Origin: a virus
Lineage: Duplodnaviria > Heunggongvirae > Uroviricota > Caudoviricetes
Virus record (IMG/VR): IMGVR_UViG_2778261182_000006
Direction: 5' to 3' (one strand)
DNA: 4,533 nucleotides
Both the position numbers and the translations under genes were made by a program. The notes below the pieces were generated by a model. That model did no database searches, had not been told where the DNA came from, and saw only the letters and a list, made by a program, of their open reading frames with translations. Shown in pieces: positions 411-4,526 of the stretch (position 1 is the first letter of the stretch; each line of letters starts with the position of its first letter).

Positions 411-1358
411 TTACCCCCTGAAGCCCGGCGGAATTTCGGTATCCGGTTCAGAAATGTGATTCACGCAACGCTGTACAGGCGAACGCCCCAGACGAATAAC
501 CAGCTCATCCCATTTTTCGCGAAGCTTTGACGGGCTCATGACGTTTTTTACCCAGAATGGATCCCGCTGTACCCGACCAAACATTTCGCAAATTTGTCTG
601 TGAGTTCTGCCATCCAGCATCCGCATTGTGCGCACATCATTGGCCCATGCAGTCCAGTTTGGTTCTTTCGGTCGCATGATTTCGCCATCATCGCTGGCAG
701 CCTGCTCGTAAAGACTCACGATTCGTCCCCAGATCCACTGCGCACACGCTAAATCTTCCTGGCTACCCCACTGGCGTTTTTTCGCACTGAACACAACCGC
801 GTCAGGGTGTCGGGTTAAAAAATCCTGTTCAGCCGTCTGCGGGTCCGGTTGCGAAGCGTCCGGACAAGAAGATCTTTTATCTGACGGATCAGGTTTTAAT
901 ACTGACGGATCGGGGCCAACCATCGCCCCCCTATCCGGCTGTTTTTTATCAATGGTTGATCCATCAAAATTTGAGGGGCCAACCGTTGAGAGGTCAATAT
1001 TTGACGGGTCATTTTTTACCGGGTTAATTTTTCTTTTCGGTTTATATGCCTCACGCGCCGCCGCTGCTGCTGCTTCGAGTTTTTCCACATTAAGACGGTA
1101 GATATTGCTTTCATTACGCCCACCGACCTTACGTTCCTCCTTCGTCAGCCAGCCGTTCTTTTCCAGTTCCGCTATCGCAGCTTTAACCGTTGATTCACTC
1201 TTTGCCCCAATCTGACGACGAATGGTCTCCACTGCAGGCCATGACACACCTTCGTCATTGCTGTAATCTGCAAGGCGAGCCATTACTGCCACCCTGGATA
1301 AGATCATGCCGGTGAAGGCACACCCTTCCCAGACAAGACCATGAAGCTTGCTGCTCAT
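411..1358 (-). CDS. Phage replication initiation protein: N-terminal DNA-binding (wHTH-like) region, low-complexity Pro/Asp/Ser linker, DnaT-like C-terminal domain
   Basis: 315-aa ORF from the track; GGAG about 7 nt upstream of the ATG (revcomp of 1365-1368). The C-terminus ...HISEPDTEIPPGFRG matches, by my recollection, the C-terminus of E. coli primosomal protein DnaT (...VSEPDSQIPPGFRG). The N-terminal region (AVETIRRQIGAKSESTVKAAIAELEKNGWL) looks like a winged-helix DNA-binding segment. It lies downstream of the cro-like and cII-like genes, as O/ydaU-type replication genes do. The linker-encoding DNA contains iteron-like repeats, as in lambda O/ori. Confidence 0.8.
   Translation of the reverse strand: MSSKLHGLVWEGCAFTGMILSRVAVMARLADYSNDEGVSWPAVETIRRQIGAKSESTVKAAIAELEKNGWLTKEERKVGGRNESNIYRLNVEKLEAAAAAAREAYKPKRKINPVKNDPSNIDLSTVGPSNFDGSTIDKKQPDRGAMVGPDPSVLKPDPSDKRSSCPDASQPDPQTAEQDFLTRHPDAVVFSAKKRQWGSQEDLACAQWIWGRIVSLYEQAASDDGEIMRPKEPNWTAWANDVRTMRMLDGRTHRQICEMFGRVQRDPFWVKNVMSPSKLREKWDELVIRLGRSPVQRCVNHISEPDTEIPPGFRG
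878..1050. repeat. Iteron-like repeats and short palindromes followed by an AT-rich stretch inside the rep gene; putative phage replication origin
   Basis: Seen directly: CTGACGGATC at 881-890 and 902-911 (21 bp apart) and TTGACGGGTC at 1001-1010; GGGGCCAACC at 912-921 and 975-984; palindromes TTGATccATCAA (956-967) and GTCAAtatTTGAC (993-1005); AT-rich 1011-1050. The region encodes the repetitive linker (PSNIDLST / PSNFDGST). The ori assignment is by analogy to lambda, where ori lies within the O gene linker. Confidence 0.4.
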
Positions 1359-1381: not shown

Positions 1382-1807
1382 TTAGTGCATCACCACGGCA
1401 TTTCCCGCCGGACCACCACGATTCATCTGGTTGAAACCAGCGATCGCCACTGCGACAAAATCATCAGCGTCTCTCACCAGTCGTTCCCGCGTCGCCACCA
1501 GCTCCCGAAAATAGGCTGAACTGTGACTGCGCATTCGGGCCACCAGCAGAGGTGGCATTGCTTTTTCGATCGCTGGTAACAGTGCCTGAATTTTTTTAAC
1601 CGCATCAGGAGTGTCTTTCTCTACCCAGCGGAAAATTTTCTGAGTATTGCGAGCCAGGGCTTCCGGATAGCTGTCGTCATACAGTTCCGGGAATGTCATA
1701 CCCAGCTCAAAATAAGCCCGGGTTATTTCAGCTGCCGGAACTTTTTCACCGTCCGGATGCGCCCAGGCACTCATCGCCATGCGGATGTGTTCATGCTTGA
1801 TTTTCAT
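1382..1807 (-). CDS. ydaT: YdaT-like protein (CII-analogue regulator of Rac-type prophages; historically annotated as toxin YdaT)
   Basis: 141-aa ORF from the track beginning MKIKHEHIRMAMSAWAHPDGEKVP, which matches my recollection of E. coli YdaT in length (about 140 aa) and N-terminus. It lies immediately downstream of the cro-like gene, overlapping it by 17 nt (1791-1807). Confidence 0.75.
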   Translation of the reverse strand: MKIKHEHIRMAMSAWAHPDGEKVPAAEITRAYFELGMTFPELYDDSYPEALARNTQKIFRWVEKDTPDAVKKIQALLPAIEKAMPPLLVARMRSHSSAYFRELVATRERLVRDADDFVAVAIAGFNQMNRGGPAGNAVVMH

Positions 1808-2063
1808 GAATCAACTCCGGTGCATTTGATGTGTTAACCTTACATCCAACAGGTAAACCGTCGGTTGGATTAGGATAAATATCAGGGCGAATTTCATGCG
1901 GGGTAACTTCCCACTTCATTAGCTGGCATAACGGAATTACCTGCTTTGGGGGAACGCCAAAGCTAAACCATTGCCAAACAGTCTGTTGAGCGACCCCCAT
2001 ATAACGACCTATTTCAGCTTGAGTGTATTTCTGCCTAATTTTTTCGCGAGTGCTATCTAGCAT
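1791..2063 (-). CDS. ydaS: Cro-like HTH regulator, YdaS family
   Basis: 90-aa ORF with an HTH (YTQAEIGRYMGVAQQTVWQW) and a YdaS-type C-terminal segment (PPKQVIPLCQLMKWEVTPHEIRPD). AGGAGG (revcomp of 2069-2074) lies 5 nt upstream of the ATG. It is divergent from the repressor-like gene at 2173. Confidence 0.8.
   Translation of the reverse strand: MLDSTREKIRQKYTQAEIGRYMGVAQQTVWQWFSFGVPPKQVIPLCQLMKWEVTPHEIRPDIYPNPTDGLPVGCKVNTSNAPELIHENQA
1797..1814. promoter_or_regulatory. Perfect inverted repeat TTGATT-N6-AATCAA centred on the ydaT start codon; candidate binding site for the CII-like YdaT or another HTH regulator
   Basis: Seen directly: TTGATT (1797-1802), spacer ttcatg, AATCAA (1809-1814). 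Its position at the cro-like/cII-like junction mirrors where lambda CII acts at pRE. Function is inferred. Confidence 0.35.
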
Positions 2064-2172
2064 TTTGCCCTCCTCTAAAAAACTATAAGCAAAGCCTACA
2101 ATAAAAAATTGTACACGATCAACAGTTTTTTATTGTGATGCTTTTAACAGTATTTACCTGTAAAATTGAATA
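2064..2172. promoter_or_regulatory. Divergent promoter/operator region (OR-like) between the cro-like and repressor-like genes
   Basis: 109-bp AT-rich intergenic region between divergent start codons. Contains the inverted repeat TACAAT-aaaaa-ATTGTA (2097-2113) and AACAGTTTTTTATTGT (2121-2136), a 15/16 match to a half-site of the palindrome at 3136-3174. A -10-like TAAAAT (2161-2166) ends 7 nt before the ATG at 2173, suggesting a leaderless repressor mRNA. Minus-strand -10 candidates are TATAGT (revcomp of 2082-2087) and TACAAT (revcomp of 2108-2113); their -35 elements are poor. Confidence 0.6.
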
Positions 2173-2574
2173 ATGATGAACGCCCTAGAAGTATCTATGT
2201 ACAGAATCAGCAAGCTTCTTCAGGAAACTGGATGGAGCCAGGCTGAGCTTGCCCGTAGAATTGGTGTGACACAACAAACTGTTCAACAATGGGCCAGCGG
2301 TAAGGCCACCCCTAAAGCCTCAAGTTTGGATAAACTGGTTGAGGTTACAGGGCATCCATTGCATTGGTTTTTATTGCCTCCTGAAGAAGGGGAGCAAATT
2401 TTCACCCCTGACACGATGAAAATTGGTCCTCGCCAACGCGAACTGCTCCAGGCTTTTAGTGCGTTTCCTGAGGAAGACCAAGAAAAAATGCTTCAAGAAA
2501 TCAAAGACAAGAAAAAATCAATGGAAGAAACCATTGCCCGGTGGTTGGCGGCGCAAAAAAGCCGCCGGGCGTAA
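2173..2574 (+). CDS. paaR2: XRE-family HTH transcriptional regulator, CI/DicA-like; regulator of the three-component TA operon and likely prophage immunity repressor
   Basis: 133-aa ORF with an HTH (SQAELARRIGVTQQTVQQWASG) and a C-terminal region typical of the dimerisation part of DicA-type repressors. No Shine-Dalgarno upstream. First gene of an operon with the antitoxin and ParE genes. Confidence 0.8.
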   Translation: MMNALEVSMYRISKLLQETGWSQAELARRIGVTQQTVQQWASGKATPKASSLDKLVEVTGHPLHWFLLPPEEGEQIFTPDTMKIGPRQRELLQAFSAFPEEDQEKMLQEIKDKKKSMEETIARWLAAQKSRRA

Positions 2575-2604: not shown

Positions 2605-2796
2605 ATGAGTACAGCCCTTTCTCCGATAGTTTCAGAATTCGAAACTACCGAACAAGAAAACAGTTACAACGAATGGCTGCGCGCTAAAGTGGCGTCAAGC
2701 CTTGCAGACCCTCGCCCCGCAATTCCACATGACGAGGTAATGGCTGAAATGGAAAATCTTATTGCTCAAATTGCTGTAACTAACAGGAGCGAGTAA
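2605..2796 (+). CDS. paaA2: Small antitoxin of a ParE-family toxin (PaaA2-like)
   Basis: 63-aa acidic ORF (MSTALSPIVSEFETTEQENSYNEWLRAKVASSLADPRPAIPHDEVMAEMENLIAQ...) with GAGGAG about 7 nt upstream of the ATG. Its stop overlaps the toxin start (TAATG at 2794-2798). Size and position match the PaaA2 antitoxin as I recall it. Confidence 0.8.
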   Translation: MSTALSPIVSEFETTEQENSYNEWLRAKVASSLADPRPAIPHDEVMAEMENLIAQIAVTNRSE

Positions 2797-3083
2797 TGTT
2801 ACCCATTTTATGGCTACCATCTGCTCGCGATGATTTGCGTCAGATCGTAGCCTATATTGCTAAGGAAAATATTCCTGCAGCACGCAGACTAAAAATACGT
2901 ATTGAAACGTCTGTTTTAGCCCTCTCTGAGCACCCATATCTATATCCGCCAAGTGATCGAGTATCCGGTTTGCGGGAAATTGTGGTTCACCCTAATTATA
3001 TCGTTTTGTACCGAGTAGCAACTTCAAGCATTGAAATTGCAAATATTGTGCATGCCCGCCGACAATTTCCCTTCTCTATCTGA
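2796..3083 (+). CDS. parE2: Type II toxin, RelE/ParE superfamily (ParE-like)
   Basis: 95-aa ORF (MLPILWLPSARDDLRQIVAYIAKENIPAARRLKIRIE...HPYLYPPSDRVSGLREIVVHPNYIVLYRV...) of typical ParE size and pattern. AGGAG (2785-2789) precedes it, with translational coupling to the antitoxin; a terminator follows. Confidence 0.85.
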   Translation: MLPILWLPSARDDLRQIVAYIAKENIPAARRLKIRIETSVLALSEHPYLYPPSDRVSGLREIVVHPNYIVLYRVATSSIEIANIVHARRQFPFSI

Positions 3084-3099: not shown

Positions 3100-3125
3100 A
3101 CTCCCTCATTCGAGGGAGTTTTTTT
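3100..3125 (+). terminator. Rho-independent terminator ending the regulator-antitoxin-toxin operon
   Basis: Seen directly: stem ACTCCCTC (3100-3107), loop ATTC (3108-3111), stem GAGGGAGT (3112-3119), overlapping a run of 7 T (3119-3125), 17 nt after the parE stop. Confidence 0.75.
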
Positions 3126-3135
3126 GCTCAAAGCC

Positions 3136-3179
3136 ACAATTAAAAACTGTTGACACAAAACAGTTTTTAATTGTAGATT
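3136..3179 (+). promoter_or_regulatory. pL/dicBp-like early promoter embedded in a 39-bp perfect palindromic operator
   Basis: Seen directly: ACAATTAAAAACTGTT (3136-3151) and its exact reverse complement AACAGTTTTTAATTGT (3159-3174), separated by GACACAA. Consensus -35 TTGACA at 3150-3155; -10 candidate TAGATT at 3174-3179 (18-bp spacer). The half-site recurs at 2121-2136 in the OR-like region. Confidence 0.55.
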
Positions 3180-3362
3180 GTTTTCACCGCCCCACCCCGT
3201 CCCACAGAACGCAGGGCAATACTTCGAGTTACCAGGCAGTGGTCAGGGGTTAAGTAGCCAGCCCGAGGCGTAAGAACATGACGGCAGGGTTCAACTTTAA
3301 TAACTATGCAGCAGGTTTTTGTTCCGCTACCCCGGCGTTAAGGGGAAACAGAGGATTTCTCA

Positions 3363-3719
3363 GTGGGCGAAGTCAAACATCAGAATGGAAGGCATCCCGG
3401 GATCGGCAAAGAAGCAGCAATGGCGCTTTATATTGACATCAGCGCCATTGCCGGACAGGTAAGAGTTATTAGAGCGGTAACTAAGCAGTATGCGCCTTTA
3501 CTTCAGAAAGTCTCTGGTGAGTGCACCGAAGATATTGTCAACGATTTCGTCATCGAACTGCGAGGACTCATCTTCAGTTACAAGGTGACCACAATTTTTG
3601 CAGATGGCTCCCGCGAAACTGTCAGAGCCCTGCGGCTTAAAGGATGTGTCAAAGACTTCGCCACCACATTCTGGGCAAGAAAACTTGATTGTATTCATAA
3701 CCAATTTCCTCTCGAGTAA
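3363..3719 (+). CDS. Alternative hypothetical protein (118 aa, GTG start), mutually exclusive with the antisense zinc-ribbon ORF
   Basis: Plus-strand ORF in the same direction as the early operon; GAGGA (3351-3355) lies 7 nt upstream of the GTG. It uses only AGA/AGG arginine codons in its unique 5' part and has no recognisable motif. Its openness over 3498-3698 may be an antisense in-register artefact of GNC-rich coding on the other strand. Confidence 0.3.
   Translation: MGEVKHQNGRHPGIGKEAAMALYIDISAIAGQVRVIRAVTKQYAPLLQKVSGECTEDIVNDFVIELRGLIFSYKVTTIFADGSRETVRALRLKGCVKDFATTFWARKLDCIHNQFPLE
3498..3698 (-). CDS. Small 4-Cys zinc-ribbon protein (about 66 aa), unknown function
   Basis: Minus-strand ORF (track 3498-3704, TTG start; more likely ATG at 3696-3698) with C-P-E-C ... 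C-K-N-C spaced about 21 residues apart, a classic zinc-ribbon signature, plus an acidic C-terminus. GAGAGG (revcomp of 3708-3713) lies about 9 nt upstream of the ATG. It conflicts with the plus-strand ORF 3363-3719; at most one is real. Confidence 0.45.
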   Translation of the reverse strand: MNTIKFSCPECGGEVFDTSFKPQGSDSFAGAICKNCGHLVTEDESSQFDDEIVDNIFGALTRDFLK

Positions 3720-4464: not shown

Positions 4465-4526
4465 TCATGTTGATTAGCACCTTTGGCGGCATCAGTTTTC
4501 ATTGCTGGCTGATGTCCGCCCTTTTT
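4465..4526 (+). ncRNA. dicF: DicF-like small RNA with its intrinsic terminator (5' end is processing-defined and approximate)
   Basis: The segment ...CCTTTGGCGGCATCAGTTTTCATTGCTGGCTGATGTCCGCCCTTTTTAAAGTGA resembles my recollection of E. coli DicF (...GTTTGGCGGTATCAGTTTTACTCCGTGACTGCTCTGCCGCCCTTTTT). Shared blocks are TTTGGCGG-ATCAGTTTT and CCGCCCTTTTT. It lies at the end of an early operon under an operator-controlled promoter, as DicF does in the dicB operon. Confidence 0.5.
4485..4526 (+). terminator. Rho-independent terminator (3' hairpin of the DicF-like RNA)
   Basis: Seen directly: stem GGCGGCATCAG (4485-4495) pairs with CTGATGtCCGCC (4509-4520, one bulged T), 13-nt loop, then a run of 5 T (4522-4526). 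Confidence 0.6.

Follow-up and report, generated by a model that had tools for sequence, protein, structure and literature searches.

We analysed a stretch of 4,533 nucleotides (hereafter the window) from a virus of the Caudoviricetes (IMG/VR record IMGVR_UViG_2778261182_000006). Positions 3136-3179, with which this work is concerned, lie between the end of a repressor operon and the start of a conserved leader. The genes and transcripts recognised in the window are the following.

411-1358, minus strand: replication-initiator-like gene (ORF and Pfam)
1382-1807, minus strand: gene for YdaT, the CII analogue (ORF and Pfam)
1791-2063, minus strand: gene for the Cro analogue, YdaS family, 90 aa (Pfam YdaS_toxin, 8e-10)
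Between the Cro-analogue and repressor genes: divergent control region of 109 bp
2173-2574, plus strand: gene for the repressor (CI analogue), 133 aa (Pfam HTH_3, 4.5e-13)
2605-2796, plus strand: gene for a PaaA-type antitoxin (Pfam PaaA2, 3e-22)
2796-3083, plus strand: gene for a ParE toxin (Pfam ParE_toxin, 4e-16)
3100-3126, plus strand: intrinsic terminator of the repressor-toxin-antitoxin (TA) operon, ACTCCCTC-ATTC-GAGGGAGT followed by T7 (3100-3119 plus T7)
3187-3350, plus strand: conserved non-coding leader of the early-left transcript, common to heteroimmune prophages
3' of the leader: antisense zinc-ribbon gene
3' of the leader: YdfC-family gene
Early-left region, downstream of the leader: ORF of 128 aa
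4474-4521: DicF-like RNA (Rfam, 38.5 bits)

The window contains a PaaR-type three-gene operon (repressor, PaaA antitoxin, ParE toxin), in which the paaA-parE pair (2605-3083) is co-transcribed with the repressor and separates its gene from OL as an accessory insert. The terminator of this operon stops about 10 nt short of the palindrome described below. Beyond repressor, TA pair and terminator, a promoter fires away into the early-left genes (ydfC, DicF-like RNA). This is the layout of lambda and Qin, with the promoter corresponding to PL and to Qin dicBp; it drives ydfC and the DicF-like RNA, and presumably dicB as well. Of 5,426 complete E. coli genomes, about 500 carry the module; an O157:H7 prophage is one of the carriers.

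Positions 3136-3151 (ACAATTAAAAACTGTT) are the exact reverse complement of positions 3159-3174 (AACAGTTTTTAATTGT), separated by a 7-nt spacer, GACACAA (3152-3158). With its 16-bp arms, this 16+7+16 palindrome is the longest perfect inverted repeat of the window. The longest inverted-repeat arm in 300 first-order Markov shuffles of the window was 11 bp, and about 2e-5 repeats with 16-bp arms would be expected by chance, given the size and composition of the window. These values bear out the first-pass annotation, a reading of the sequence that preceded this analysis and had called the palindrome perfect and far beyond chance. It had also described a recurrence of one arm at 2121-2136, where we indeed found AACAGTTTTTTATTGT, and a degenerate partner at 2098-2112 (ACAATAAAAAATTGT). 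This second recurrence is real, but the site is not degenerate, being the most symmetric of all (ACAAT-AAAAA-ATTGT).

Each arm of the palindrome is itself dyad-symmetric (ACAAT-TAAAA-ACTGT). The motif ACART-N5-AYTGT, with at most one mismatch, occurs in five copies in the window, against 0.52 expected, and no shuffle reached five. The copies are confined to two control regions, two at the early-left promoter and three in the divergent region, with start-to-start spacings of 24 bp at PL and of 24 and 25 bp in the divergent region. All ten half-sites read ACA(A/G), four of them ACAA and six ACAG, and the operator centres in the window are purely A/T. From the internal dyad and the five-copy 15-bp motif, we conclude that the former 16-bp "half-site" is a whole operator and that the palindrome consists of two mirror operators. 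The 39-bp cassette that they form is duplicated at 2098-2136 (77% identity as a direct repeat; 79% over 42 nt as an inverted repeat), which the earlier annotation had overlooked. It had also overlooked the third site of the divergent region (ACAGTATTTACCTGT, 2147-2161), which is not part of any 39-bp unit.

The description of the palindrome as one 39-bp operator with 16-bp half-sites is therefore not supported, since the arms are complete 15-bp dyads and a lone copy stands at 2147-2161. The relatives presented below also speak against it, as they carry two separate 13-15-bp dyads, and the operators of one of them, L041, are non-mirror. The idea of a two-locus operator set survived in part: OL-like and OR-like regions served by the regulator encoded at 2173-2574 are retained, and the 16-bp half-site as their unit is not. 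The operators and the promoters that they overlap are listed here.

2093-2122, minus strand: PR-equivalent promoter of the Cro/CII-analogue operon, -35 TTGATC (2122 to 2117), 18-nt spacer, -10 TAGGCT (2098 to 2093)
2098-2112: OR1-like operator, ACAATAAAAAATTGT, set within the -35/-10 interval of the leftward promoter for the Cro analogue
2122-2136: OR2-like operator, ACAGTTTTTTATTGT, overlapping the PR -35 from its upstream side
2147-2161: OR3-like operator, ACAGTATTTACCTGT, one-mismatch match, overlapping the putative PRM -10, TAAAAT (2161-2166)
3136-3150: OL2-like operator, promoter-distal, ACAATTAAAAACTGT, exact motif match, its final T being the first base of the -35
3150-3179, plus strand: PL-equivalent sigma-70 promoter, -35 TTGACA (3150-3155), 18-nt spacer, -10 TAGATT (3174-3179)
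3160-3174: OL1-like operator, promoter-proximal, ACAGTTTTTAATTGT, exact motif match and exact reverse complement of 3136-3150

The best sigma-70 match within the window is TTGACA-18 nt-TAGATT (10/12), with a +1 predicted at about A3186. This promoter is the counterpart of lambda PL, Qin dicBp and CP-933P PL933P. The operators overlap its core: the -35 begins at the last base of the distal operator, and the proximal operator fills the spacer between -35 and -10, its final T being the first base of the -10 hexamer. As had been proposed, the -35 TTGACA lies inside the palindrome (3150-3155), and bound repressor would cover both the -35 and the spacer. No third operator with at most one mismatch was found at PL, nor was anything dyad-like present at +/-24 bp (3111-3125, 3184-3198).

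The same register (operator, -35, operator, -10) is found on the minus strand in the divergent region; the two cassettes are therefore inverted copies, divergent from the repressor gene, like PR and PL of lambda. The PR equivalent was read off the sequence by its register with the PL cassette, being a weak consensus match that the promoter scan missed. Its -10, TAGGCT, matches the consensus poorly. Both halves of the OR1-like operator are ACAAT in the window, and both halves of the OR3-like operator are off-consensus (ACAGT, ACAGG). The centre of the OR2-like operator lies about 44 bp upstream of the repressor ATG (2173), which follows TAAAAT (2161-2166) by 6 nt. We found no description of operators of this immunity type in the literature.

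Scanning viral contigs for the exact pattern gave 47 loci, most of them close relatives and hence non-independent. About 40 carry two cassettes, at a distance of 1,032-1,037 bp (the arrangement of the window) or of 683 bp. The search pattern fixed 20 of the 30 operator positions, so that the invariance of the operators is partly ascertainment; the centres and the partner cassettes alone are free of this bias. Among the 21 unique PL cassettes, 27 of 40 flank positions were polymorphic and 1 of 10 free operator-centre positions; the -35 was invariant, and the next 2-4 bases were hypervariable. Similarly, the first five -35 bases of the PR cassettes were conserved and the following 3-5 bases hypervariable, whereas the operators were not. 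The OL2-like operator (3136-3150) was invariant across the collected loci except for one centre variant, and essentially all loci of the window immunity type have an OR3-type site at 10 bp from OR2 (43 pair matches, 45 loci). Two contigs found through one cassette had the partner variants ACAAG and ACAATAAATAACTGT, which remain within the ACA(A/G) family.

The TA pair is dispensable. In two loci (L028 and L038), paaA-parE is missing and the repressor gene stands directly between the two cassettes, which are 683 bp apart; this indicates that the TA pair is an insertion at the rex position. A divergent lineage, L041, encodes a 146-aa repressor with VTQQTVQQW and a Cro analogue with QQSVAQW. Its OR contains ACAAGAAAATATTGT and ACAAGATGATCTTGT, and its PL reads ACAATAAAATACTGT-TGACATAA-ACAATTATTTATTGT. 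Compared with the window type, the half-sites and the helix are kept (ACAA[T/G]-N5-...TTGT around TTGACA), but the operators are non-mirror and 23 bp apart.

The leader is conserved in many more genomes than the module, about 3,700 of the 5,426, and was used as an anchor to fetch heteroimmune modules. In at least five heteroimmune relatives, K-12 Rac and CP-933P among them, the same leader is preceded by dyads of the relative's own type, arranged as operator, -35, operator, -10 like those of the window. Every fetched module has two dyads in the same register, and each dyad type recurs in the OR of its own locus. The PL cassettes of several of these modules read as follows.

Rac: TTAGGCATAGCCTA, TTGACA, TTAGGCATTACCTA, TAGTTC
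L004 and L009: ATAGCAnnGCTAT, TTTACA, ATAGyAnTGsTAT
L008, L011 and L012 (HK022-like): GTACTAAAAGTAC, TTTACA, ...GTAC, ATTATA
L010: CTCACATATTGAG, TTGACA, CTCACGATATGTGAG

For Rac, footprints of RacR in the racR-ydaS region cover three dyads, (T/A)TAGGC-n3-GCCTA(T/A) (PMC9638921). The dyad co-varies with the repressor within a fixed promoter architecture, and no other evidence speaks as strongly for each arm of the palindrome being an operator in its own right.

The leader itself starts C-rich (CCCACCCCGyCCCACAGAACG...), ends in ...CCCCGGCGTTAAGGGGAAA and is non-coding over about 160 nt. It is common to all the immunity types compared, with the mosaic joint at the predicted transcription start. 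An Rfam search of the window at E<=1 gave no match at the palindrome or the leader; the sole match was DicF at 4474-4521. We considered whether the leader is an HK022 put-like antiterminator RNA and rejected this, as it has no sequence similarity to putL. A structured RNA was also rejected, its minimum free energy (MFE) being no better than that of shuffles (z=+1.2); RNAalifold on 15 leader variants gave 0 compensatory pairs. A small ORF was discarded as well: relatives retain an ATG at 3278, but they differ by ACCCCGG/ACCCGG indels that change the reading frame.

The window is about 91% identical to an O157:H7 locus and 98% identical to one in strain A8. The identification of this O157 locus with the published paaR2-paaA2-parE2 of CP-933P was rejected, because the published primers and the PaaR2 N-terminus (MQKKEIRRL) mismatch the window. 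The published PaaR2 operator/primer sequences (GTTTAGTGTTTAATAA...) are likewise absent from the window. The window type probably corresponds to paaR1-paaA1-parE1, a paralogue to which Hallez et al. 2010 gave this name. CP-933P was located through a published primer. Its PL933P occupies the exactly equivalent position, with its own -35, -10 and repeats, and from about 3190 on the window matches the leader and downstream genes of CP-933P at about 98% identity. A PL933P-gfp fusion was repressed about 100-fold by PaaR2 and by YdaS, the precise binding sequences being, according to the authors, still to be determined (PMC8630535). In Qin, DicA represses dicBp, which drives ydfABC-dicF-dicB, and deletion of dicA derepressed dicBp 22-fold (PMC10448788). 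The repression of PL933P, by homology of context, validates where the window promoter lies and what it does; on the window operators it says nothing direct.

The best PDB match of the repressor helix-turn-helix (HTH) was the 434 repressor's DNA-binding domain (1.6e-5). Helix 3 aligns as TQQSIEQ in 434 and TQQTVQQ in the window repressor, which places Q34, Q35 and Q39 on Gln28, Gln29 and Gln33 of 434. In the 434 co-crystal structures, these three glutamines read the operator sequence ACAA-N6-TTGT, and the 434 OR3 carries a weaker ACAG half-site variant. The window operators (ACAA-N7-TTGT) are 15 bp long, one central bp more than the 14 of 434, so the geometry of the dimer must differ from that of 434. 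The 434 operators are 14-bp dyads in which the outer 4+4 bases are conserved and the outer 5+5 contacted, and the non-contacted centre tunes affinity (PMC1636474).

The C-terminal 98 aa of the repressor show 42% identity (E 4e-20) with CP-933P PaaR2 and include the PaaR2-like signature ...ARW(L/I)AAQKxRRA; the N-terminal 36 residues and the HTH regions of the two proteins fail to align. Pfam detected no peptidase/autocleavage (LexA-like S24) domain in the 133-aa repressor. Judged by its sequence, the repressor is a PaaR/DicA-type CI analogue with a 434-like HTH. The Cro analogue is 42% identical to the repressor across the HTH (E 3e-8), with AQQTVWQW for TQQTVQQW. Its match in the PDB was a marginal one to Cro (E 0.15), and the argument for a shared helix therefore rests on the pairwise alignment of the two window proteins. 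With the QQTVxQW helix in common, both should read the same sites, as the 434 repressor and Cro do. The first-pass annotation had mentioned neither the recognition helix shared with the Cro-like protein nor the competition for sites expected from it.

Taken together, positions 3136-3179 very probably serve a lambdoid prophage immunity module as its OL/PL control region, with two 15-bp dyad operators that are predicted sites of a 434-type repressor. The sequences, their statistics and conservation, the protein similarities and the architecture kept in relatives are established directly, and the experimental support is drawn entirely from heteroimmune siblings with different HTH domains and operators. 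In the switch that we propose, binding by the window repressor, cooperativity, the order of site occupancy, the +1 positions and leaderless translation are all predicted. Repressor dimers would read each ACA(A/G) half-site through the 434-type helix (Q34, Q35, Q39), and dimers at OL1 and OL2 would together extend over the -35 and the spacer to the edge of the -10, excluding RNA polymerase and blocking PL. Binding at OL1 and OL2 is probably cooperative through the PaaR-type C-terminal oligomerisation domain; we consider this probable because of that domain and of the 24-bp, lambda-like spacing.

The same repressor, at OR1 and OR2, would switch off PR and the Cro/CII-analogue operon, and when bound at OR2 it would probably stimulate its own leaderless promoter. 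OR3, which overlaps the putative PRM -10, would serve auto-repression at high repressor levels. The Cro analogue would compete for all five sites. The affinity order predicted for the repressor is OR1 >= OR2/OL1/OL2 > OR3, and the Cro analogue would prefer the sites in the opposite order. The distance of 6 nt from the -10 to the ATG, together with the position of OR2 about 44 bp upstream, suggests a leaderless mRNA and activation from OR2, both of which have been reported for PaaR2 and lambda CI; the repressor mRNA is probably leaderless. The module is a conventional phage immunity switch with 434-like specificity, a heteroimmune addition to a familiar class.

The symmetry of the palindrome raises the question of whether its two operators work as separate sites. 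Exact mirror symmetry between the two operators holds for 36 of the 45 PL cassettes and for 44 of the 45 PR cassettes (OR2 being the mirror partner of OR1), and the asymmetric features are mirrored too: at both promoters the consensus ACAAT halves face outward and the weaker ACAGT halves inward, and the polarity of the A-tracts is mirrored. One way to read this is that the mirror pairing is needed by a PaaR-type dimer of dimers or octamer with 434-type reading heads, whose two-fold axis falls on the -35, the cassette acting as one unit. We regard this as unlikely. L041 and the other immunity types are without mirror symmetry, which argues against a general requirement for it. The symmetry may instead be inherited, because the loci are closely related and the two cassettes are copies of each other.

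Still less probable, in our judgement, is a single 39-bp operator whose 16-bp arms are half-sites for one repressor oligomer. The frequency of exact mirror images and the mirrored asymmetry speak for it, as does the report that PaaR2 is octameric in solution (PMC8630535). However, each arm is already a dyad that fits a 434-type dimer site, and OR3 (2147-2161) stands alone as a 15-bp site. The O157-type variants have an 8-nt central spacer and one mismatched arm; in L041, the recognition helix is the same but the operators are non-mirror and lie 23 bp from each other; and the mirrored asymmetry is missing from other immunity types.

A role for the palindrome as an RNA hairpin for back-up or bidirectional termination or for processing, instead of as a protein-binding site, appears very improbable. 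It would fold as a 16-bp RNA stem (-17.4 kcal/mol, z = -4.9), and it appears in the terminator scan listing, where it is followed by AGATTGTTTT. The stem has just 3 G-C pairs, however, and a poor U-tract, a canonical terminator with T7 already lies about 10 nt upstream, and the PL transcript starts downstream of the palindrome. Moreover, a terminator would not be expected in the divergent promoter region, yet the same sequence is found there, and the heteroimmune relatives swap in other dyads that match their own OR. The least credible reading, a LexA (SOS) box formed by the inner CTGT...ACAG that would tie a non-cleavable repressor system to DNA damage, draws on the CTGT (3147-3150) and ACAG (3160-3163) that flank the -35, on the same arrangement in the PR cassette and on the lack of a peptidase/autocleavage domain in the repressor, but the spacing is N9 (N10 in O157-type variants) against the LexA consensus CTGT-N8-ACAG, the centre (TGACACAAA) is unlike the AT-alternating LexA core, and the CP-933P and Qin promoters of this class are reportedly unresponsive to mitomycin C.

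With the palindrome read as two 434-type operators, the element would control the expression of cell-division inhibitors (DicF, DicB) and of other early-left genes in a widespread E. coli prophage module, and it would also set the expression context of the ParE toxin-antitoxin pair. The value of the analysis is modest: it provides an explicit operator map, five sites with a predicted affinity order, and an instance of the PaaR/DicA scaffold combined with a 434-like reading head. It also corrects a natural but wrong assumption, in that the published PaaR2 operator data do not apply to the window sequence. Our understanding of phage switches is unchanged.

With lambda, the window shares the divergent PR/PRM region with three operators, the repressor gene, an accessory module at the rex position and an OL/PL that fires away; in both, the operators overlap the -35 and the spacer, and neighbouring operator centres are 24 bp apart. 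In contrast to lambda, the window operators are 15 bp rather than 17 bp long, the repressor is without a RecA-cleavable C-terminal domain, no N gene or nutL was recognised in the window, and a different conserved leader follows the promoter. The number of operators at PL also differs, since two are detectable in the window and three are present in lambda, 434, Qin and, as claimed, CP-933P.

Phage 434 provides the closest solved DNA-binding domain, and its QQxxxQ helix is found in both the window repressor and the Cro analogue. The ACA(A/G) half-sites and the A/T-rich, presumably non-contacted centre of the window operators are also 434-like. However, these operators are one central bp longer, the C-terminal domain of the repressor is unrelated (PaaR type), and the identity across the HTH is only about 40%, so the window module is not a 434 immunity allele.

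In Qin, as in the window, the promoter lies 3' of the CI analogue, the repressor is of similar size and non-cleavable, and it forms a bistable switch with the Cro analogue (PMC10448788). The window has ydfC and a DicF-like RNA downstream, comparable to ydfABC-dicF-dicB of Qin. The operator sequences are different, though; three operators are reported at dicBp, and no TA module follows dicA. In Rac, two further copies of the dyad bracket TTGACA upstream of the same leader, in the register of the window palindrome, but the dyad is of 13-14 bp and of another sequence, RacR is a different HTH protein and the PL operators are non-mirror.

CP-933P (Jurenas et al. 2021, PMC8630535) has the same order of repressor, paaA, parE, terminator and PL, a homologous repressor C-terminal domain, and a YdaT (CII analogue) that is near-identical to that of the window, as is its box. 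It differs in the HTH domain and in the operators, the published GTTTAGTAA-type repeats being unmatched in the window. The window and CP-933P are heteroimmune, so the published repression data serve as an analogy to the window element rather than as a measurement of it.

The operators on both sides of the −35 hexamer are invariant in the compared loci of viral contigs L013-L059. Sharply unlike them, the short stretch from the hexamer to the promoter-proximal operator (window 2113-2116 and 3156-3157, and the matching positions in these otherwise near-identical loci) is hypervariable. A divergent immunity region in viral contig IMGVR_UViG_2744054871_000024 (locus L041, 2054-2638) encodes a 146-aa repressor whose helix, VTQQTVQQW, is as in the window's type. 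Its putative operators are ACAA[T/G]-N5-...TTGT dyads around TTGACA and the mirror-image relation is absent, making this locus a useful natural control on whether operator mirror symmetry matters. On another viral contig (L052, 3246-3284), a pair of divergent HTH genes, with helices that start VTQQA, is separated by a region holding two identical copies of ACAATTTTTAATTGT; an unrelated phage lineage thus appears to combine a TQQ helix with the ACAAT-N5-ATTGT dyad.

Two viral contigs carry the window's immunity type without the paaA-parE pair (L028, 7487-8208; L038, 5136-5857). In both, the distance from the PR to the PL cassette is 683 bp versus approximately 1,035 bp, and the repressor gene alone occupies the interval. 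This arrangement suggests that the toxin-antitoxin pair, which looks like a moron, was inserted at the rex position. On the other side of the immunity module, we located an exact copy of a known regulatory site:

window 1797-1814, YdaT box TTGATTTTCATGAATCAA (TTGATT-N6-AATCAA), across the ydaS stop and the ydaT start

YdaT, the CII analogue, has this motif as its published binding site, and the motif marks the PRE933P region. The window likewise contains the primer sequence published for PRE (approximately 1779-1798), so the ydaS/ydaT flank is common to the window and CP-933P, the heteroimmune sibling prophage.

Transcripts from the palindrome's promoter are predicted to begin with a conserved segment:

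window 3187-3350, non-coding leader of approximately 160 nt, starting at the predicted +1

This leader, which is unannotated and has a C-rich 5′ end, is 87-98% conserved in approximately 3,700 of 5,426 complete E. coli genomes, where at least five different repressor/operator modules sit upstream of it, including those of K-12 Rac and CP-933P. A search of the leader for an Rfam match, similarity to put, covariation or a conserved ORF found none of these; possible roles are those of a rut site, an antitermination signal or a processing signal. Further downstream, a DicF-like sRNA (window 4474-4521, + strand) matched Rfam RF00039 with 38.5 bits (E 5.5e-6), under the gathering score of 48. The palindrome's promoter probably drives this DicF copy, since the sRNA occupies the expected place, 3′ of a YdfC-family gene. 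The early-left transcription unit contains, on the opposite strand:

window 3498-3704, − strand, zinc-ribbon ORF of 68 aa, ECs_2282 family
window 3715->3688, − strand, promoter-like site of this ORF, TCGAGA-16-TACAAT

Transcription of this ORF would be convergent with PL.

Regarding known systems, at both promoters the operator half-sites that face inward make up a CTGT-N9-ACAG element spanning the −35 (window 3147-3163 and 2109-2125). This element resembles a LexA box, but its spacer exceeds that of a LexA box by one base, and by two in the O157-type variants. The arrangement of the antisense zinc-ribbon ORF is identical in CP-933P. The RefSeq annotation of this stretch of the prophage in O157:H7 (L060, 2496-4195) lists ydfC and dicB; therefore, its early-left promoter, PL933P, heads a dicB-type operon, as the promoter of the window presumably does.
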